Of a DNA stretch of 64,000 nt, positions 27,988-56,905 are shown piece by piece. Below the pieces are notes generated by a model. It had not been told where the DNA came from. It worked only from the letters and a program-made list of their open reading frames with translations, and did not search any database. Numbering within the stretch: position 1 is the stretch's first letter; each line of letters begins with the position of its first letter. The stretch lies in the NCBI RefSeq assembly GCF_054482595.1, contig NZ_CM137008.1; one strand, 5' to 3'. The translations under genes were made by a program, and so were the position numbers.

Positions 27988-28020
27988 GCCCCGCCAGCGA
28001 TAATAGCGGGGCTTCGTTTT
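27988..28020 (+). terminator. Rho-independent terminator after ykgJ
   Basis: gccccgccagcgataatagcggggc followed by ttcgtttt. Confidence 0.6.
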
Positions 28021-28169
28021 CAGGGACAACAAAACCCGAAACTTCTTGTATTTGCCAGCAACAATGCCTCTCTTCTGTAGCGTTCTTCGGATCTACATCA
28101 TCCTGAAGTAGCGCGATATACTCACTGACTATCTGAATCAGAATATAAAAAGCAATGTTTTTAACCTAT

Positions 28170-28199
28170 AAAAATGGCGCTGTATTTGCGCCATTTTTA
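28170..28199 (-). terminator. Rho-independent terminator after yagU
   Basis: aaaaatggcgctgtatttgcgccattttt; symmetric A/T runs. Confidence 0.6.
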
Positions 28200-28211
28200 T
28201 CATTCAATGCA

Positions 28212-39652: not shown

Positions 39653-39728
39653 TGGTGCCGATAATAGGAGTCGAACCTACGACCTTCGCATTACGAATGC
39701 GCTGCTCTACCAACTGAGCTATATCGGC
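39653..39728 (-). tRNA. thrW: tRNA-Thr (anticodon CGT)
   Basis: Reverse complement GCCGATATAGCTCAGTTGGTAGAGCAGCGCATTCGTAATGCGAAGGTCGTAGGTTCGACTCCTATTATCGGCACCA; cloverleaf with CGT anticodon and CCA end. Confidence 0.9.
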
Positions 39729-44051: not shown

Positions 44052-45296
44052 TTAACACAAACGTTTTTCGATCCATTCTGTGATTTCCTGAAGACCTTTG
44101 TCAAAATTCCGATACACCGGGTTAAATGGGATCTCTAATAATTTACCGTCAGCAGATGATGAGGTGATTAAGCGTGAGTCCTCTTCCGGGCTGAACGGAT
44201 CGTTCTTCCAGTAGCCTGATAACATTGGCGTTGGGCAGCGACGTCCCAGCAATCCTTGCACTTTTAATGAATAGCGATTCAGCTCCACGCGCAACGCTTC
44301 GTCGGAAGCATCATGCATCCCCAAACGACTGGCCAGAACGTCAAGATACATTTCCGGCACCTGTTGCTGGCACTTAAAATCACTCAACAGGGTATGAACT
44401 ACCGGACCAAGACAGGCAACCGCTTTCAGACGCGGCGATTCAAGGTATGCCAGACGCACGGCAACGTTAGCGCCGAAACGGAAACCAAAGGCCGCGACGC
44501 GAGTGTGATCCACCCACGGTACGTTAGGCAGTGCCTTTAAGACGTGCTGATGCAACAGGCTGGAGTCCTGGGTGAGCTTCCATTTTGAAGAAAAGCCCAC
44601 CGACGGCATATCAATAGTCAGCATCGCAATGCCGCGCGGCGCAAAATAACGTTCATACAGGCTGTAATAGTCCGTCTGCATCGCATCCAGACCACCACAC
44701 ATTAATACCGTCGGGAACGGGCCATCGCCTTTCGGCATATGCAAAAAGCCGGTGATGGGCGCACCGCCAGGTACGGTAAACTCCATCTGCCGCATCGTGC
44801 CCGGTAGACGCTGAGCGGCCTCTTCATAGGCGCGGTTTGACAAAGCCTGCGCTTGCTCGGCCAGGTCATCTCCTTTCAGATGAGGATAGGCGGCAATGTT
44901 GTACAACGTAGCCGCATGCAGCCAGTGACGACCACTGAGTTGCGGATCTTCTTCCGCACAGGCTTTTTGTTGCCACACCATCGCCTGGGTGGCCCACTCA
45001 TAAATCCAGTTGCCGCCACGGTAGCCAATCACCGTATCGTATAAATCATCGTCGGTACGTTCGGCATCGCTCATCACAATACGTGCCTGGACGTCGAGGA
45101 TTTCGCGTGGGTCAATGCCGCGCCAGATCCACATCAGACGGTTAATCATGCGATACCAGTGAGGGATGGTTTTACCATCAAGGGCCGACTGCACAGGCGG
45201 TTGTGCGCCGTGATTAAAGCGGCGGACTAGCGTCGAGGTTTCAGGATGTTTAAAGCGGGGTTTGAACAGGGTTTCGCTCAGGTTTGCCTGTGTCAT
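44052..45296 (-). CDS. frsA: Fermentation/respiration switch esterase FrsA
   Basis: 414-aa ORF; alpha/beta hydrolase. Confidence 0.9.
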
Positions 45297-45387: not shown

Positions 45388-45846
45388 TTAGCGACCGGAG
45401 ATTGGCGGGACGAATACGACGCCCATATCCCACGGCTGTTCGATCCAGGTATCTTGCGGGATATCAACAACATAATCATCAACCAGCGGACGACCAGCCG
45501 GTTTTGCAAAGATGGTGACAAAGTGCGCTTTTGGATACATTTCACGAATCGCAACCGCAGTACCACCGGTATCCACCAGGTCATCAATAACGATGAAGCC
45601 TTCGCCATCGCCTTCTGCGCGTTTCAGCACTTTAAGCTCGCGCTGGTTGTCGTGATCGTAGCTGGAAATACAAACGGTATCGACATGACGAATACCCAGT
45701 TCACGCGCCAGTAACGCACCCGGTACCAGACCGCCACGGCTTACGGCAATAATGCCTTTCCATTGTTCAGAAGGCATCAGTCGGCTTGCGAGTTTACGTG
45801 CATGGATCTGCAACATGTCCCAGGTGACGATGTATTTTTCGCTCAT
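45388..45846 (-). CDS. gpt: Xanthine-guanine phosphoribosyltransferase
   Basis: 152-aa [26 protein letters not shown]... Confidence 0.9.
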
Positions 45847-46106: not shown

Positions 46107-47564
46107 GTGTCTGAACTGTCTCAATTATCTCCACAGCCGCTGTGGGATATTTTTGCCAAAATCTGTTCTATTCCTCACCCGTCCTATCATGAAGAGCAAC
46201 TCGCTGAATACATTGTTGGTTGGGCAAAAGAGAAAGGTTTCCATGTCGAACGCGATCAGGTAGGTAATATCCTGATTCGTAAACCTGCTACCGCAGGTAT
46301 GGAAAATCGTAAACCGGTCGTCTTACAGGCCCACCTCGATATGGTGCCGCAGAAAAATAACGACACCGTGCATGACTTCACGAAAGATCCTATCCAGCCT
46401 TATATTGATGGCGAATGGGTTAAAGCGCGCGGCACCACGCTGGGTGCGGATAACGGCATTGGTATGGCGTCTGCGCTGGCGGTTCTGGCTGACGAAAACG
46501 TGGTTCACGGTCCGCTGGAAGTGCTGCTGACCATGACCGAAGAAGCCGGTATGGACGGTGCGTTCGGCTTACAGAGCAACTGGTTGCAGGCTGATATTCT
46601 GATTAACACCGACTCCGAAGAAGAAGGTGAAATCTACATGGGTTGTGCGGGGGGTATCGACTTCACCTCCAACCTGCATTTAGATCGTGAAGCGGTTCCA
46701 GCTGGTTTTGAAACCTTCAAGTTAACCTTAAAAGGTCTGAAAGGCGGTCACTCCGGCGGTGAAATCCACGTTGGCCTGGGTAATGCCAACAAACTGCTGG
46801 TGCGCTTCCTGGCGGGTCATGCAGAAGAACTGGATCTGCGTCTTATTGATTTCAACGGCGGCACACTGCGTAACGCCATCCCGCGTGAAGCCTTTGCGAC
46901 CATTGCTGTCGCAGCTGATAAAGTCGACGCCCTGAAATCTCTGGTGAATACCTATCAGGAGATCCTGAAAAACGAGCTGGCAGAGAAAGAGAAAAATCTG
47001 GCCTTGTTGCTGGACTCTGTAGCGAACGATAAAGCTGCCCTGATTGCGAAATCTCGCGATACCTTTATTCGTCTGCTGAACGCCACCCCGAACGGTGTTA
47101 TCCGCAATTCCGACGTGGCAAAAGGTGTGGTCGAAACCTCCCTGAACGTCGGTGTGGTGACCATGACTGACAATAATGTAGAAATTCACTGCCTGATCCG
47201 TTCTCTGATCGACAGCGGTAAAGACTACGTGGTGAGCATGCTGGATTCGCTGGGTAAACTGGCTGGCGCGAAAACCGAAGCGAAAGGCGCATATCCTGGC
47301 TGGCAGCCGGACGCTAACTCTCCGGTGATGCATCTGGTACGTGAAACCTATCAGCGTCTGTTCAACAAGACGCCGAACATCCAGATTATCCACGCGGGCC
47401 TGGAATGTGGTCTGTTCAAAAAACCGTATCCGGAAATGGACATGGTTTCTATCGGGCCAACAATCACCGGTCCACACTCTCCGGATGAGCAAGTTCACAT
47501 CGAAAGCGTAGGTCATTACTGGACACTGCTGACTGAACTGCTGAAAGAAATTCCAGCGAAGTAA
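46107..47564 (+). CDS. pepD: Cytosol non-specific dipeptidase (aminoacyl-histidine dipeptidase)
   Basis: 485-aa ORF; M20 peptidase. Confidence 0.9.
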   Translation: MSELSQLSPQPLWDIFAKICSIPHPSYHEEQLAEYIVGWAKEKGFHVERDQVGNILIRKPATAGMENRKPVVLQAHLDMVPQKNNDTVHDFTKDPIQPYIDGEWVKARGTTLGADNGIGMASALAVLADENVVHGPLEVLLTMTEEAGMDGAFGLQSNWLQADILINTDSEEEGEIYMGCAGGIDFTSNLHLDREAVPAGFETFKLTLKGLKGGHSGGEIHVGLGNANKLLVRFLAGHAEELDLRLIDFNGGTLRNAIPREAFATIAVAADKVDALKSLVNTYQEILKNELAEKEKNLALLLDSVANDKAALIAKSRDTFIRLLNATPNGVIRNSDVAKGVVETSLNVGVVTMTDNNVEIHCLIRSLIDSGKDYVVSMLDSLGKLAGAKTEAKGAYPGWQPDANSPVMHLVRETYQRLFNKTPNIQIIHAGLECGLFKKPYPEMDMVSIGPTITGPHSPDEQVHIESVGHYWTLLTELLKEIPAK

Positions 47565-47576
47565 TTATTTGATTTG

Positions 47577-47608
47577 CTGCCGGATGGCGTTTAATCGCCT
47601 TCCGGCAG
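47577..47608. terminator. Bidirectional hairpin terminator (pepD / prfH)
   Basis: ctgccggatggcg...cgccttccggcag. Confidence 0.55.
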
Positions 47609-47620
47609 TTTCATCCTTCA

Positions 47621-48356
47621 TTATCCTTCGATAAAAGCCATCCCTGTAAACGTTCGTCGCGGGTTGCCACGTTCAATCTGGTGATGGAACATTCGCCGCT
47701 GCGATTTCAGCACTGCGCTATTTTCCTGTTGCTGTTGCTCCAGCTTCCAGGCAATCAGCAATCGTGCCAGCCGCTTGTTGGCATGCTGGCTGCGCTCTGA
47801 CTGAACCTTCACGCTAATCCAGGTAGCCAGATGCGTGGCGCGCGCCGCCGAATCGGTTTTATTGACATGTTGACCGCCCGGCCCCGACGAACGCAGCGTC
47901 TCATAACGGACCGCGTCGGATTGTTCCTGCTCATCAGCAGTAAAACGCCCAATGCCCAGAAACCAGTTTTTACGCCCATGATGTGGGCGATACGGACTCC
48001 GACAAATCCACTGAATAGTGCCATACCAGCTTTCGCTTAATGCCCATGCGTTGTCGCCATTCAGAGAAACCAGCGCTGAACGCAGGGTGTCAGAGTAACG
48101 ACCTGTTTCTGTTTCCAGCACTGTTACCGCGACGTCTTGTCGGGTAAAAACGACCAACAGAGAAGAACGCTGCGCCAATCGGGTAGCCGCGTCCGGGGTG
48201 TAAATCTGGCATCCCCACTACGCGCTGCATGTTGGGTAAATTTGCCGTGGTGTGTAATTGTTGGATCGCTAAACTCTCGATCCACAGGTCATCAGATGCG
48301 ATGGTAAATACCGCATCGGATAAGGGACGAATATATTTGCCCATGTACCATTCCAT
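47621..48356 (-). pseudogene. prfH: Decayed rtcB-prfH module: RtcB-like N-terminal fragment in one frame fused to a release-factor-H body with a divergent N-terminus
   Basis: 47621..48178 encodes a class-I release-factor fold with GGQ ([15 protein letters not shown]) but an unusual N-terminus; 48090..48356 encodes a short RtcB-like N-terminal stretch ([17 protein letters not shown]) in another frame. Confidence 0.6.
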
Positions 48357-48646
48357 TTATACTCGTCATACTTCAAGTTGCATGTACTGCGACTACGTTC
48401 GTTCACCCCAGTCACTTACTTTAGTAAGCTCCTGGCGATTCACTCGCTTGTCACCTTCCTGCAACTCGAATTATTTAGAGTATATAAATATTAAAAATCA
48501 GGAAATGGCAGACGAATCCAGGGCAAGAAAAAAAGAATTAATCCTGGAAAGGTCTGCAAAGAGTCATTGATAAAGGATTTGTCATGATTTACCTCCTTGC
48601 AGTTTGTGGAATAAGAAAACGCGCACATACCAGGCGGGCGTTATTT

Positions 48647-49114
48647 TCATTGCAAGCTGGATTTAATGTTGCGGTTTATATCGCATAGAAAAATTAGTAA
48701 ACCACGCTCCCCGGCATTCAACGCGCTGCTGCTTAACTGTCTGAAAACCATAACGTTCAAAAAAGGGTTTGCGGTTATGCTTGCGTCCACCGTAAGTTCG
48801 GATTCAGACTTAATCAAAGGTTTTAACAAAGCGCTGGCAACCCCACGGCGGGTGTATTCAGGGTCAACAAATAACATATCGATATAATGTTCAATGCGGG
48901 AAATAAAACCAACCGGTTGTGCATTAATGACTGCAACCCGCACTTGTGATTTCGCGAGTTTCTCCTTCCAGCGAGATTCGTCAATCTGCGCCCAGGCGGC
49001 AATTTGTTGTGGTGAATAATGCTGACTTGCGGTCATCATAACCGCTCTAATGAAAATAGCGCATAGTTGCTGAAAATCGCCAGGCTGATAGTTTCTTATT
49101 TGTATGTTATTCAT
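48647..49114 (-). CDS. yafP: GNAT-family acetyltransferase YafP
   Basis: 155-aa ORF; start overlaps the dinB stop. Confidence 0.8.
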
Positions 49115-50166
49115 AATCCCAGCACCAGTTGTCTTTCCATTTGCGGGTCAAGCAACGTCACATGCAGCCCCACCAGACGCACACCTCGCCCGCCGCGGCG
49201 TTCATCCCAGGTTTTACGCGCGGTGGCGATTAAGTCAGCTTTATTCAGCCTCGGCCAGACGTGCTCCTGGGTGGTTTGCTGAAAATCGTCGAACTTTAAT
49301 TTCACCCCCTGGCGAGCAATCAGTAAATCAGGTTTTACCTTTGCCAGACGGCGTTCAAGTTCCGGATACAGCCGCTCGATAATCGCCTCACATTCAGACC
49401 AGTGATGAATATCTTCCGCCATCGTGCGTTCCACGCCGACGGATTTTCGCAACCGTTCGCTGTTAACATCGCGTTCGTCAATCCCCTGACTACGCTCCCA
49501 CAAAATGCGGCCAAATTTGCCAAAGCGTTTAAGCAGTATCACCAGATCACACTTTTGTACATCACCGCAGGTCCGCAGCCCCATCGCTTCCAGTTTTGCC
49601 GCCGAGACTTTGCCGACGCCGGGGATTTTTGCCAGTGATAAGGTTTGTAAAAATGCCGGAACTTCTGCCGGCGTAATCACAAACTGGCCGTTGGGTTTAT
49701 TCATGTCGGAGGCGATTTTGGCGAGAAACTTTACTGGTGCCACGCCCGCAGATGCCGTCAGTTGCAGCTCGTTGAAAATCGTCTGGCGGATTTCCTGGGC
49801 GATGAGGGTCGCAGAACCGTGGCAATGGACGCTGTCGGTGACATCGAGATAGGCTTCATCCAGTGACAACGGTTCAATGCGCGAGGTGTAGCGCGAGAAG
49901 ATTTCACGGATATGATTTGAGGCTTCTTTGTAGGCGTCAAAGCGCCCCGGAAGCAAGGTGAGATGTGGGCATAATTTGAGCGCCATCCCTGTCGGCATAG
50001 CGCTACGTACGCCAAATTTACGCGCGGGATAATTGGCGGTGCTGATCACCCCTCGACGTTCGCGGCTGCCGCCAATAGCAATAGGGATATCGCGCAGGGC
50101 GGGATTGTCGCGCATCTCCACCGCTGCGAAAAAGCAGTCCATATCCACATGAATGATTTTACGCAT
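49111..50166 (-). CDS. dinB: DNA polymerase IV
   Basis: 351-aa [36 protein letters not shown]... Confidence 0.95.
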
Positions 50167-50236: not shown

Positions 50237-51000
50237 TTAACGCGTTCGCTGCGAAAGCACCTGCTGCTTATCCAGCTTTTGCACCAGTGGCTGCACCACT
50301 TTATCCCCATGCTGACCAAAGTATTGATACAGCGTATCGGACGCACTTTTGGTCAGCACCATAATCTCAATACGCCGATTGCCCGCGCTTTGCGGATTTT
50401 TGGCATCCAGCAGCATCTGGTCCGCCATTGCGCTTACCTGCATCACTTTATCTTCCGGCATTCCGGCCTCTTCCAGCACCCGACGAGCTGAAAGCGCGCG
50501 ATCGCCCGAAAGGTTCCAGTTGTTGTAGATATTGTTTTTGTAGGCCATCGCATCGGTATGCCCGGTAATAATAATTTTGTTATCGAGCGAGTCGAACACT
50601 GGCGCTAGCTCCACCAGCAGCGTTTTAAAGAACGGCATAATCTTCGCGCTGCCGCGTTCGAACATATTGCGATTCTGGTCGTCTTTAATCAGCACGCGTA
50701 ATCCCTGGGGAACAATCTCCATCTCCAGATTCGCTTCCATATGCGCATCACGGGCAATGGTGTTGATACTGGTTGCCAACTCGCCAAGCTCGGTGGCGGA
50801 TTTCTTCTTCAGCAGCGCCGTTTTCTCATTCACATCACGCGCTTTTTTCTCCGTCTCTTCCGGCACCGCCACGGTGGCAGGTTTTGGCGGATGAGACGGG
50901 CTGATTTTATTTAACGGCGACAGCCCACCACCGTTAAAAATCGACTGCCCGTGCAGCGCGGCGATAATGCTTTCACGCTCGGATTTACTGACGCTGTTGA
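50237..51000 (-). pseudogene. lafU: MotB-like Flag-2 motor protein remnant, 5'-truncated
   Basis: C-terminal OmpA-like peptidoglycan-binding domain (ITGHTDAMAY...NRRIEIMVL); the apparent N-terminal 40-50 aa of ORF 50237..51127 is antisense lfhA sequence. Confidence 0.7.
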
Positions 51001-52706
51001 CAATCAACTTTATCGTCGTCACCAAAGGGGCCGAGCGTATTTCCGAGGTTTCTGCCCGCTTTACCCTGGACGCGATGCCCGGCAAACAGATGGCGATTGA
51101 CGCCGACCTTAACGCCGGGTTGATCAACCAGGCGCAGGCGCAAACCCGGCGTAAAGATGTCGCCAGCGAGGCCGATTTCTACGGCGCGATGGACGGGGCA
51201 TCAAAGTTTGTGCGCGGGGACGCCATCGCCGGGATGATGATTCTGGCGATCAACCTGATCGGCGGTGTCTGTATCGGGATCTTCAAATACAACCTGAGCG
51301 CCGATGCTGCCTTCCAGCAATATGTGCTGATGACCATCGGCGACGGGCTGGTGGCGCAGATCCCTTCCCTGCTGCTCTCCACCGCGGCGGCGATTATCGT
51401 CACCCGCGTCAGCGACAACGGCGATATCGCCCATGACGTGCGCCACCAGCTGCTGGCAAGCCCGTCGGTGCTCTACACCGCCACCGGGATTATGTTTGTG
51501 CTGGCGGTGGTGCCGGGAATGCCGCATCTGCCGTTTTTGCTGTTCAGCGCCCTGCTTGGCTTTACCGGCTGGCGGATGAGCAAACGCCCGCAGGCAGCGG
51601 AGGCGGAGGAGAAAAGTCTCGAAACGCTGACCCGCACCATCACCGAAACCAGCGAGCAACAGGTCAGTTGGGAAACGATACCGCTGATCGAGCCTATCAG
51701 TTTAAGCCTCGGCTACAAACTGGTGGCGCTGGTGGACAAAGCCCAGGGCAACCCACTCACCCAGCGGATCCGCGGCGTGCGACAGGTGATATCCGACGGC
51801 AACGGCGTGCTGCTGCCGGAGATCCGCATTCGGGAAAATTTCCGCCTCAAGCCCAGCCAGTACGCCATTTTCATCAACGGTATTAAGGCTGATGAAGCGG
51901 ATATTCCGGCGGATAAACTGATGGCCCTGCCCTCCAGCGAAACCTACGGCGAGATTGACGGCGTGCTGGGGAACGACCCGGCGTACGGGATGCCGGTGAC
52001 CTGGATCCAGCCCGCGCAGAAAGCGAAGGCGCTGAATATGGGGTATCAGGTGATCGACAGCGCCAGCGTGATTGCCACCCATGTGAATAAGATTGTGCGC
52101 AGCTATATTCCTGATTTGTTTAACTATGATGATATTACGCAGTTGCATAATCGTTTGTCGTCGATGGCACCGCGCCTGGCAGAAGACTTAAGCGCGGCGC
52201 TGAATTACAGCCAGTTGCTGAAAGTGTACCGCACACTACTGACCGAAGGCGTTTCCCTGCGCGATATCGTCACCATCGCCACCGTGCTGGTCGCCAGTAG
52301 CGCGGTGACTAAAGATCATATTCTGCTGGCGGCCGATGTACGCCTGGCGCTGCGGCGCAGCATTACCCATCCGTTCGTTCGCAAGCAGGAGCTGACGGTG
52401 TATACGCTGAATAATGAGCTGGAAAATCTGCTCACCAATGTGGTGAATCAGGCGCAACAGGGCGGCAAAGTGATGCTCGACAGCGTGCCGGTTGACCCGA
52501 ATATGCTCAACCAGTTCCAGAGCACGATGCCGCAGGTAAAAGAGCAGATGAAAGCGGCGGGGAAAGACCCGGTGCTGCTGGTGCCGCCGCAGCTTCGCCC
52601 TTTGCTGGCGCGCTATGCGAGATTGTTTGCGCCGGGGCTGCATGTGCTGTCGTATAACGAAGTGCCGGATGAGCTGGAGTTGAAGATTATGGGGGCGTTG
52701 ATGTAG
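50967..52706 (+). pseudogene. lfhA: Flag-2 FlhA-family export-apparatus gene remnant lacking the first ~120 codons
   Basis: ORF begins inside the FlhA transmembrane region (VVTKGAERISEVSARFTLDAMPGKQMAIDADLNAGLI); no upstream coding sequence. Confidence 0.75.
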
Positions 52707-53479: not shown

Positions 53480-53575
53480 ATTCGCGGGCTCGTAGGCATG
53501 ATAAGACGCGCCAGCGTCGCATCAGGCACCTGCGTACAACTGCCGGATGCGGCGTAAACGCCTTATCCGTCCTAC
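53480..53575. repeat. REP elements
   Basis: tcgtaggcatgataagacgcgccagcgtcgcatcaggc...gccggatgcggcgtaaacgccttatcc. Confidence 0.85.
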
Positions 53576-56759: not shown

Positions 56760-56905
56760 GAATTTTCAGGTCGGATGCGGCGTGAACGCATTATTCGGCC
56801 TACGGTTCGCGTACAGATTTGTAGGCATGATAAGACGCGTCAGCGTCGCATCAGGCATCGGTGCACAATTGCCGGATGCGGCGTAAACGTCTTATCCGGC
56901 CTACG
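56760..56905. repeat. REP/BIME cluster
   Basis: tcggatgcggcgtgaacgc...gtaggcatgataagacgcgtcagcgtcgcatcaggc...gccggatgcggcgtaaacgtcttatccggcctacgcc. Confidence 0.85.

Follow-up and report, generated by a model that had tools for sequence, protein, structure and literature searches.

The locus at positions 47,621–48,356 of the window, the 64,000-nucleotide stretch of contig NZ_CM137008.1 (RefSeq assembly GCF_054482595.1) analysed here, is almost certainly the inactivated remnant of the Escherichia coli rtcB2-prfH ribosome-repair operon, left by one 1,027-bp deletion with no working RtcB2 or PrfH. The deletion allele is inherited, not new, and is the same lesion that is carried by K-12 and by about half of the sequenced E. 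coli. Its two open reading frames (ORFs) are best annotated as the pseudogene fragments prfH′ and rtcB2′, and not as a release factor with a small hypothetical protein beside it. The lesion has been known since 2006, and the reading given in the initial annotation, a decayed RtcB2-PrfH pair, is textbook for this locus. The truncated prfH/rtcB-family operon of K-12 is credited to Pel (1992) and to Baranov et al. (2006; PMC1586002).

In its intact form, the module pairs the 379-aa RNA ligase RtcB2 with PrfH, a 204-aa release-factor homologue that docks in the damaged A site, where it hydrolyses peptidyl-tRNA; on ribosomes with a decoding-centre cut in the 16S rRNA, PrfH first releases the peptide, after which the rRNA is religated by RtcB2 (Tian et al., 2022; PMC9304027). 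The rRNA-recognition domain of PrfH comprises residues 2–98 and 180–204, and its GGQ domain residues 108–161 (PMC9304027; structure PDB 7SA4), and the products of both genes were regarded as presumably inactive in K12 owing to the deletion (Tian et al., 2022; PMC9304027). Earlier, Baranov et al. (2006; PMC1586002) had described the K-12 prfH as N-terminally truncated, through a ~1,000-nt deletion in K12 MG1655, W3110 and O157:H7 by which the upstream product loses C-terminal sequence and RFH loses N-terminal sequence, and had argued that any truncated product would be without a central beta-strand of domain 2. The mechanism of the module and the lack of function of the truncated operon are taken here from the literature. 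A search on 'ykfJ' found no paper on its expression or function.

The first of the two ORFs, described initially as release-factor-like with an intact GGQ motif and a non-canonical N-terminus, is found as described on the minus strand at 47621–48178, wherein 185 residues are encoded from a TTG start. It matches the Pfam RF-1 family (E 5e-22) and reaches 262.5 bits against the PrfH model TIGR03072 (release_prfH), which exceeds the equivalog cutoff of 166.65 in a partial-length alignment covering profile positions 31–200 of 200 only. The GGQ codons, at 47870–47878 on the minus strand, are intact and specify PrfH residues 120–122, the catalytic motif of the peptidyl-tRNA hydrolase domain. Alignment to the intact strain WAT delimits the retained prfH DNA to 47621–48144 (minus strand), that is nt 92–615 of the gene, from the second base of codon 31 to the stop codon at 47621–47623, encoding residues 32–204 of the 204-aa PrfH. 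The N-terminus of the ORF is odd because the prfH frame continues upstream of the junction into rtcB2, so that the first 12 residues are an out-of-frame translation of rtcB2 DNA. With codons 1–31 deleted, neither a complete rRNA-recognition domain nor the native start codon is present; as this domain comprises residues 2–98 and 180–204, the absence of residues 1–31 is a real structural loss, which amounts to about a third of its N-terminal segment. The candidate starts on the minus strand within 47621–48178 are TTG 48178, TTG 48157 and GTG 48121, and no obvious Shine-Dalgarno sequence occurs in the 20 nt upstream of any of the three.

The second ORF, the short RtcB-like fragment that had been placed in a different frame, is likewise borne out: it lies on the minus strand at 48090–48356, in another frame than the prfH ORF, and has 88 codons, with the genuine rtcB2 start codon, an ATG, at 48344. 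Against the RtcB2 model NF007153, it scores 107 bits (cutoff 407; model positions 1–69 of 379), and the remnant reaches 100 bits against TIGR03073 (cutoff 271.8), so that a full-length RtcB2 match is lacking with either model. The retained rtcB2 DNA is 48145–48344 (minus strand), namely nt 1–200 of the gene, or codons 1–66 and two bases of codon 67, and is labelled in RefSeq as 'RtcB family protein, missing C-terminus'; RefSeq genomes carry the whole arrangement as prfH and RtcB-family pseudogenes. This annotation and the recurrence of the junction in 2,688 complete E. coli genomes speak against a chance arrangement. The frame that is open from the rtcB2 start covers 48090–48344 (84 codons), the last 17 codons being out-of-frame prfH DNA before the TAA at 48090–48092. 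The catalytic core of RtcB2 is gone, as residues 67–379 are deleted, a stretch that begins immediately ahead of the GNDIGCG motif of the intact WAT RtcB2, and the deleted part presumably held the catalytic residues of RtcB, the metal-binding Cys/His and the His nucleophile. Nor does prfH follow directly downstream of rtcB2 in an ATGA overlap, which is located inside the deleted 1,027 bp.

The locus was aligned with those of K-12 EMG2, of the closest genome XH990, and of strain WAT, in which both genes are intact in the same slot (rtcB2, 379 aa; prfH, 204 aa). Compared with WAT, the window has one 1,027-bp gap, with the junction between 48145 and 48144, and the junctions of EMG2 and XH990 are identical in position to it. 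The deletion removes rtcB2 nt 201–1140 (codon 67 to the end) and prfH nt 1–91 (codons 1–31), and with them the ATGA stop/start overlap by which the two genes are coupled. Since its length, 1027, is 1 mod 3, the two remnants stand in different frames, and the rtcB2 frame therefore reads through 17 prfH codons and then stops at 48090–48092. The window shares with the K-12 truncated operon the slot between pepD and yafP, the 1,027-bp deletion, the position of the junction, the identical 200-nt rtcB2 remnant and the pseudogene annotation in RefSeq, and differs from it in the junction 7-mer, which is CCCGGCA in K-12 and CCCGACA in the window. With the intact RtcB2-PrfH module, as in E. coli ATCC 25922, it shares the orthologous locus, retained DNA that is 93–100% identical to intact E. 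coli alleles, and the GGQ domain; it is without RtcB2 residues 67–379, the whole ligase core, without PrfH residues 1–31, and without the ATGA overlap.

Each breakpoint falls within one copy of an imperfect 7-nt direct repeat, which is (T/C)CCGGCA on the rtcB2 side and CCCGACA on the prfH side. In intact alleles, the left-hand copy is preceded by TTTTA and the right-hand copy by GCT(G/A), the two being 1,027 bp apart, and the repeats are present at both breakpoints in WAT, 536, MRY15-131, E. whittamii and MOD1-EC7003, all with a 379-aa RtcB2 and a 204-aa PrfH. At the junction, rtcB2 nt 200 is joined to prfH nt 92, in a register that is ambiguous within the 7-nt repeat, and the retained copy, at 48138–48144 on the minus strand, is CCCGACA, the prfH-side version. 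The resulting sequence, GTCGTTTTTA joined to CCCG(A/G)CAAGACG, is common to the window, K-12, O157:H7, PT62 and others. From this arrangement, we infer that the deletion arose by slippage or illegitimate recombination at the microhomology of the repeats. This one deletion between the two 7-nt imperfect direct repeats has taken the whole ligase catalytic core, the ATGA coupling and the first 31 codons of the PrfH rRNA-recognition domain, and has left an rtcB2 frame that ends after 17 prfH codons and a prfH frame without a proper start.

It could be argued that a truncated PrfH of 166–185 residues is still made and has kept a residual activity or taken on a new one, for instance as an ArfB-like peptidyl-tRNA hydrolase or as a competitor for the A site. 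The frame is open over 185 codons with the GGQ intact, the score against the PrfH model remains above the cutoff, the lineage-specific changes are mostly synonymous, and a reviewer of the study by Baranov et al. (2006; PMC1586002) pointed out that nobody had looked at expression. Nevertheless, several lines of evidence make this reading very improbable. A crude sigma-70 consensus search of 47500–48700 found no promoter-like site, versus 1.5 expected in shuffled sequences, the in-frame starts have no obvious Shine-Dalgarno sequence, and the product would lack 31 residues at the N-terminal end of the rRNA-recognition domain. The RF-1 (GGQ) domain is shared by the ORF with RF1/RF2 and with ArfB, but the scores are far below the RF1/RF2 cutoffs (85 vs 370 for prfB; 71 vs 423 for prfA), the ArfB model NF006718 gives 31.6 bits vs a cutoff of 100 and over 25 residues around the GGQ only, and both the stop-codon recognition domain and a C-terminal tail of the ArfB type are lacking. 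A terminator scan returned a single weak terminator-like site, on the opposite strand.

The replaced residues and the state of the remnant in other carriers argue in the same direction. Relative to intact PrfH, the window has the replacements D59N, C71Y, P79R, I109V, V131A, S138T and G139W, of which D59N, C71Y, P79R, S138T and G139W belong to the window clade, and V131A is private to the window and is its sole difference from XH990 in 7 kb. G139W and V131A fall inside the GGQ domain, and C71Y and P79R are at otherwise invariant residues, as D59, C71, P79 and G139 do not vary in nine other allele types (six of E. coli and three of other Escherichia species), while position 138 is already S/T-variable among the compared alleles. 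Further damage was seen in sampled carriers of the deletion: GENOMIC22-004 and SJC33 have a second deletion of ~165 bp, equivalent to 47787–47951, that removes the GGQ; the remnant of XJ34 has another loss, of ~155 bp, and indels besides; that of CUVM53 has an internal stop in its annotation; and ~700 genomes cover less than 80% of the 524-nt prfH remnant. Judged by annotation length, MRSN346647, Ecol_545 and EBJ003 probably share the ~165-bp GGQ deletion.

Direct observations on the module come from colicin E3 challenge, wherein deletion of rtcB2 and/or prfH sensitised ATCC25922 and made no difference in BW25113, which has the truncated operon (Maviza et al., 2022; PMC9223846). The claim of the initial annotation that the truncated product is unlikely to be functional is thus upheld, because the K-12 derivative BW25113 gains nothing from its truncated genes against colicin E3, and because the sequence agrees with this in the lost domain segment, the lost translational coupling, the replaced invariant residues and the secondary deletions elsewhere. 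By analogy with BW25113, the window strain is predicted to be without RtcB2-PrfH repair of 16S rRNA cleaved by toxins of the colicin E3 type and to gain no protection against colicin E3 from the locus, and we infer that it has no stable product from the locus.

A gradual decay of the operon by several independent lesions, frameshifts as well as deletions, was also weighed, as the remnants lie in different frames and some other strains have extra lesions. It is extremely improbable for the window, since both remnants align to intact alleles without an indel and the frame offset is explained by 1027 = 1 mod 3. No further indel was found in the 200-nt rtcB2 remnant or the 524-nt prfH remnant relative to intact alleles, only point substitutions, and the prfH remnant aligned with eight other alleles with zero indels. 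The "deletion and frameshift erosion" of the RtcB2-PrfH pair that had been proposed is therefore right in its first part, as alignment to intact rtcB2-prfH loci, the check suggested at that time, shows that rtcB2 has lost the greater part of its length and prfH its 5′ end, and overstated in its second, as a single 1,027-bp event without any other indel leaves no stepwise frameshift erosion. The recovery of a full-length rtcB frame by correcting a single sequencing error, named as what would overturn the initial reading, is not achievable, with 940 nt of rtcB2 physically missing from the window and the junction recurring in thousands of independently sequenced genomes. That the operon is really intact or trivially damaged, and the gap an error of sequencing or assembly or a recent lesion confined to this isolate, can be dismissed with near certainty, as 1,027 bp and not one base are missing, the same junction is found in 2,688 complete genomes, K-12, O157:H7 and C43(DE3) among them, the lesion was published in 2006 (PMC1586002), and no point in favour was found.

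At the species level, the deletion and the intact operon are about equally common. Among 5,426 complete E. coli genomes, a 120-nt junction probe was covered in one piece in 2,688, and the deleted 1,027-bp segment was found in 2,715, so that the two counts are nearly complementary at ~50% each. K-12, O157:H7 and the BL21-derived C43(DE3) are among the deletion carriers, and 536, SE11, HS and ST131 among the intact strains. The carriers fall into three junction types by the 7-mer, CCCGACA in 1,126 genomes (the window type, counted with a 42-nt probe), CCCGGCA in 1,214 (the K-12 type) and TCCGGCA in 337. The first of these is the repeat copy from the right-hand breakpoint, and the other two are the C and T variants of the left-hand copy. 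Such switching of the 7-mer suggests conversion against intact alleles or the retention of a different repeat copy. Recurrent independent deletions were considered as the source of the junction polymorphism and were rejected, since the left repeat itself is T/C polymorphic in intact alleles. GENOMIC22-004, of the T type, and SJC33, of the C type, have the same secondary deletion, and this favours conversion or mutation in a single lineage over separate events.

A young, swept deletion haplotype was another candidate, as the first six deletion carriers compared were identical in the 200-nt rtcB2 remnant and differed by 17–35 nt on the prfH side; it was abandoned when a wider sample gave 0–5 differences on the left side and the left/right asymmetry became weaker. 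An exact scan for the junction GGTCGTTTTTACCCGRCAAGACG in one genome per bacterial species gave no match, the E. coli representative included, and this one-genome-per-species scan therefore offers no evidence of the deletion outside E. coli.

The prfH remnant of the window is itself divergent. Over ~47780–48122, it differs by ~7.5% from K-12 and WAT, whereas the flanks differ by 0–2%, and the remnant as a whole differs from that of K-12 at 35 of 524 nt (6.7%) and in 7 residues. This haplotype is common to 16 of the 5,426 genomes, including XH990 and the O157:H16 strain Santai, and all others are at most 94.5% identical to it. Seventeen variants are private to the window clade among E. coli alleles, 11 synonymous and 6 non-synonymous, which gives a dN/dS of ~0.17 (P = 0.0004 vs neutrality). 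Taken alone, such a low ratio resembles purifying selection on the remnant; as the private variants are mostly synonymous, most of the divergence would have accrued in a working gene, and we attribute the ratio to divergence built up while the haplotype sat in an intact prfH.

Import of 47780–48122 from a foreign species was considered as an origin of the divergent stretch, and yielded no donor. A scan with a degenerate prfH pattern, which fits all nine E. coli alleles examined, returned only E. whittamii, Escherichia sp. E1V33 and Escherichia sp. MOD1-EC7003, and retrieved no E. coli representative genome. The nearest allele is the intact one of Escherichia sp. E1V33, which differs at 25 of 524 nt and has 5 of the 17 window-specific variants in common, and is not a convincing donor. 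Intact E. coli prfH alleles differ from one another at up to 32 of 524 nt, and with prfH so broadly diverse in E. coli, the window allele is better regarded as the extreme of a broad range than as clearly foreign. A distance of 23 nt separates the start of the divergent stretch from the junction, where the 7-mer has the prfH-side form; tentatively, the right flank of the deletion haplotype may have been swapped with that of a divergent intact allele by homologous recombination up to the edge of homology.

Beyond the single lesion in the window, the presence and absence of RtcB2-PrfH might constitute a long-lived balanced polymorphism of E. coli, in which the deletion would have been moved repeatedly to new backgrounds, or its flanks re-imported from intact alleles, by homologous recombination up to the junction. 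The ~50% frequency, the prfH haplotypes of the carriers, which are as divergent as those of intact alleles, and the switching of the junction 7-mer all point in this direction, and we rate the proposal as unlikely, though conceivable. If it were true, a cost of the module would be weighed against exposure to colicin E3 or CdiA toxins, and the window clade would be a mosaic of a selected divergent prfH segment and the standard deletion haplotype. The ~50:50 split among 5,426 genomes together with the mosaic flanks may be of interest for the population genetics of bacterial conflict systems.

The genomic neighbourhood is that of annotated E. coli chromosomes, with the gene order frsA-gpt-pepD-[prfH′-rtcB2′]-yafP-dinB-lafU. 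According to the ORFs and the RefSeq annotation of near-identical genomes, frsA (44052–45296), gpt (45388–45846) and dinB (49111–50166) are on the minus strand; pepD (46107–47564, plus strand) lies downstream of the prfH remnant and yafP (48647–49114, minus strand) upstream of the rtcB2 remnant, a context that matches the K-12-type deletion allele. In the 56-bp gap between the convergent ends of pepD and prfH, the inverted repeat CTGCCGGATGGCG...CGCCTTCCGGCAG at 47577–47608 is likely a shared terminator hairpin, although the terminator scan gave no call there. In MRY15-131, E. whittamii and MOD1-EC7003, prfH is followed by DNA unrelated to that found there in the window and K-12, with annotated genes for a metal-dependent hydrolase and a hypothetical protein between prfH and pepD in MRY15-131, and PrfH ends in VAV and not IEG in MRY15-131 and MOD1-EC7003.

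Between yafP and the rtcB2 remnant, outside the module, lies an ERIC/IRU repeat (48357–48480; core 48395–48466), which is also present in K-12 and XH990 and of which a 72-bp central part is missing in the intact WAT. It matches the ERIC2 primer at 21 of 22 positions (48400–48421) and the ERIC1R primer at 19 of 22 (48422–48443). This repeat is the probable source of the additional megablast matches, a median of 6 places per genome. The dinB and yafP genes overlap at 49111–49114, and the yafN-yafO toxin-antitoxin pair, which stands between them in K-12, 536 and O157:H7, is missing in the window strain, XH990, WAT, PT62 and MRY15-131.

An Rfam scan found nothing in or beside the rtcB2-prfH locus, and its hits above the gathering threshold in the window, all on the minus strand, were IS009 (28008–28206), one tRNA (39656–39728) and two copies of naRNA4/CssrE (53495–53572 and 56824–56901). 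Further along, 50237–52706 resembles a scar of the Flag-2 lateral-flagella system, in which a lafU ORF (50237–51127, minus strand) overlaps an N-terminally truncated FlhA-like ORF (50967–52706, plus strand). The same arrangement occurs in K-12 and WAT, whereas XH990 and Santai keep lafU-motA and further Flag-2 genes, and the identity of the window to XH990 collapses at ~50965.
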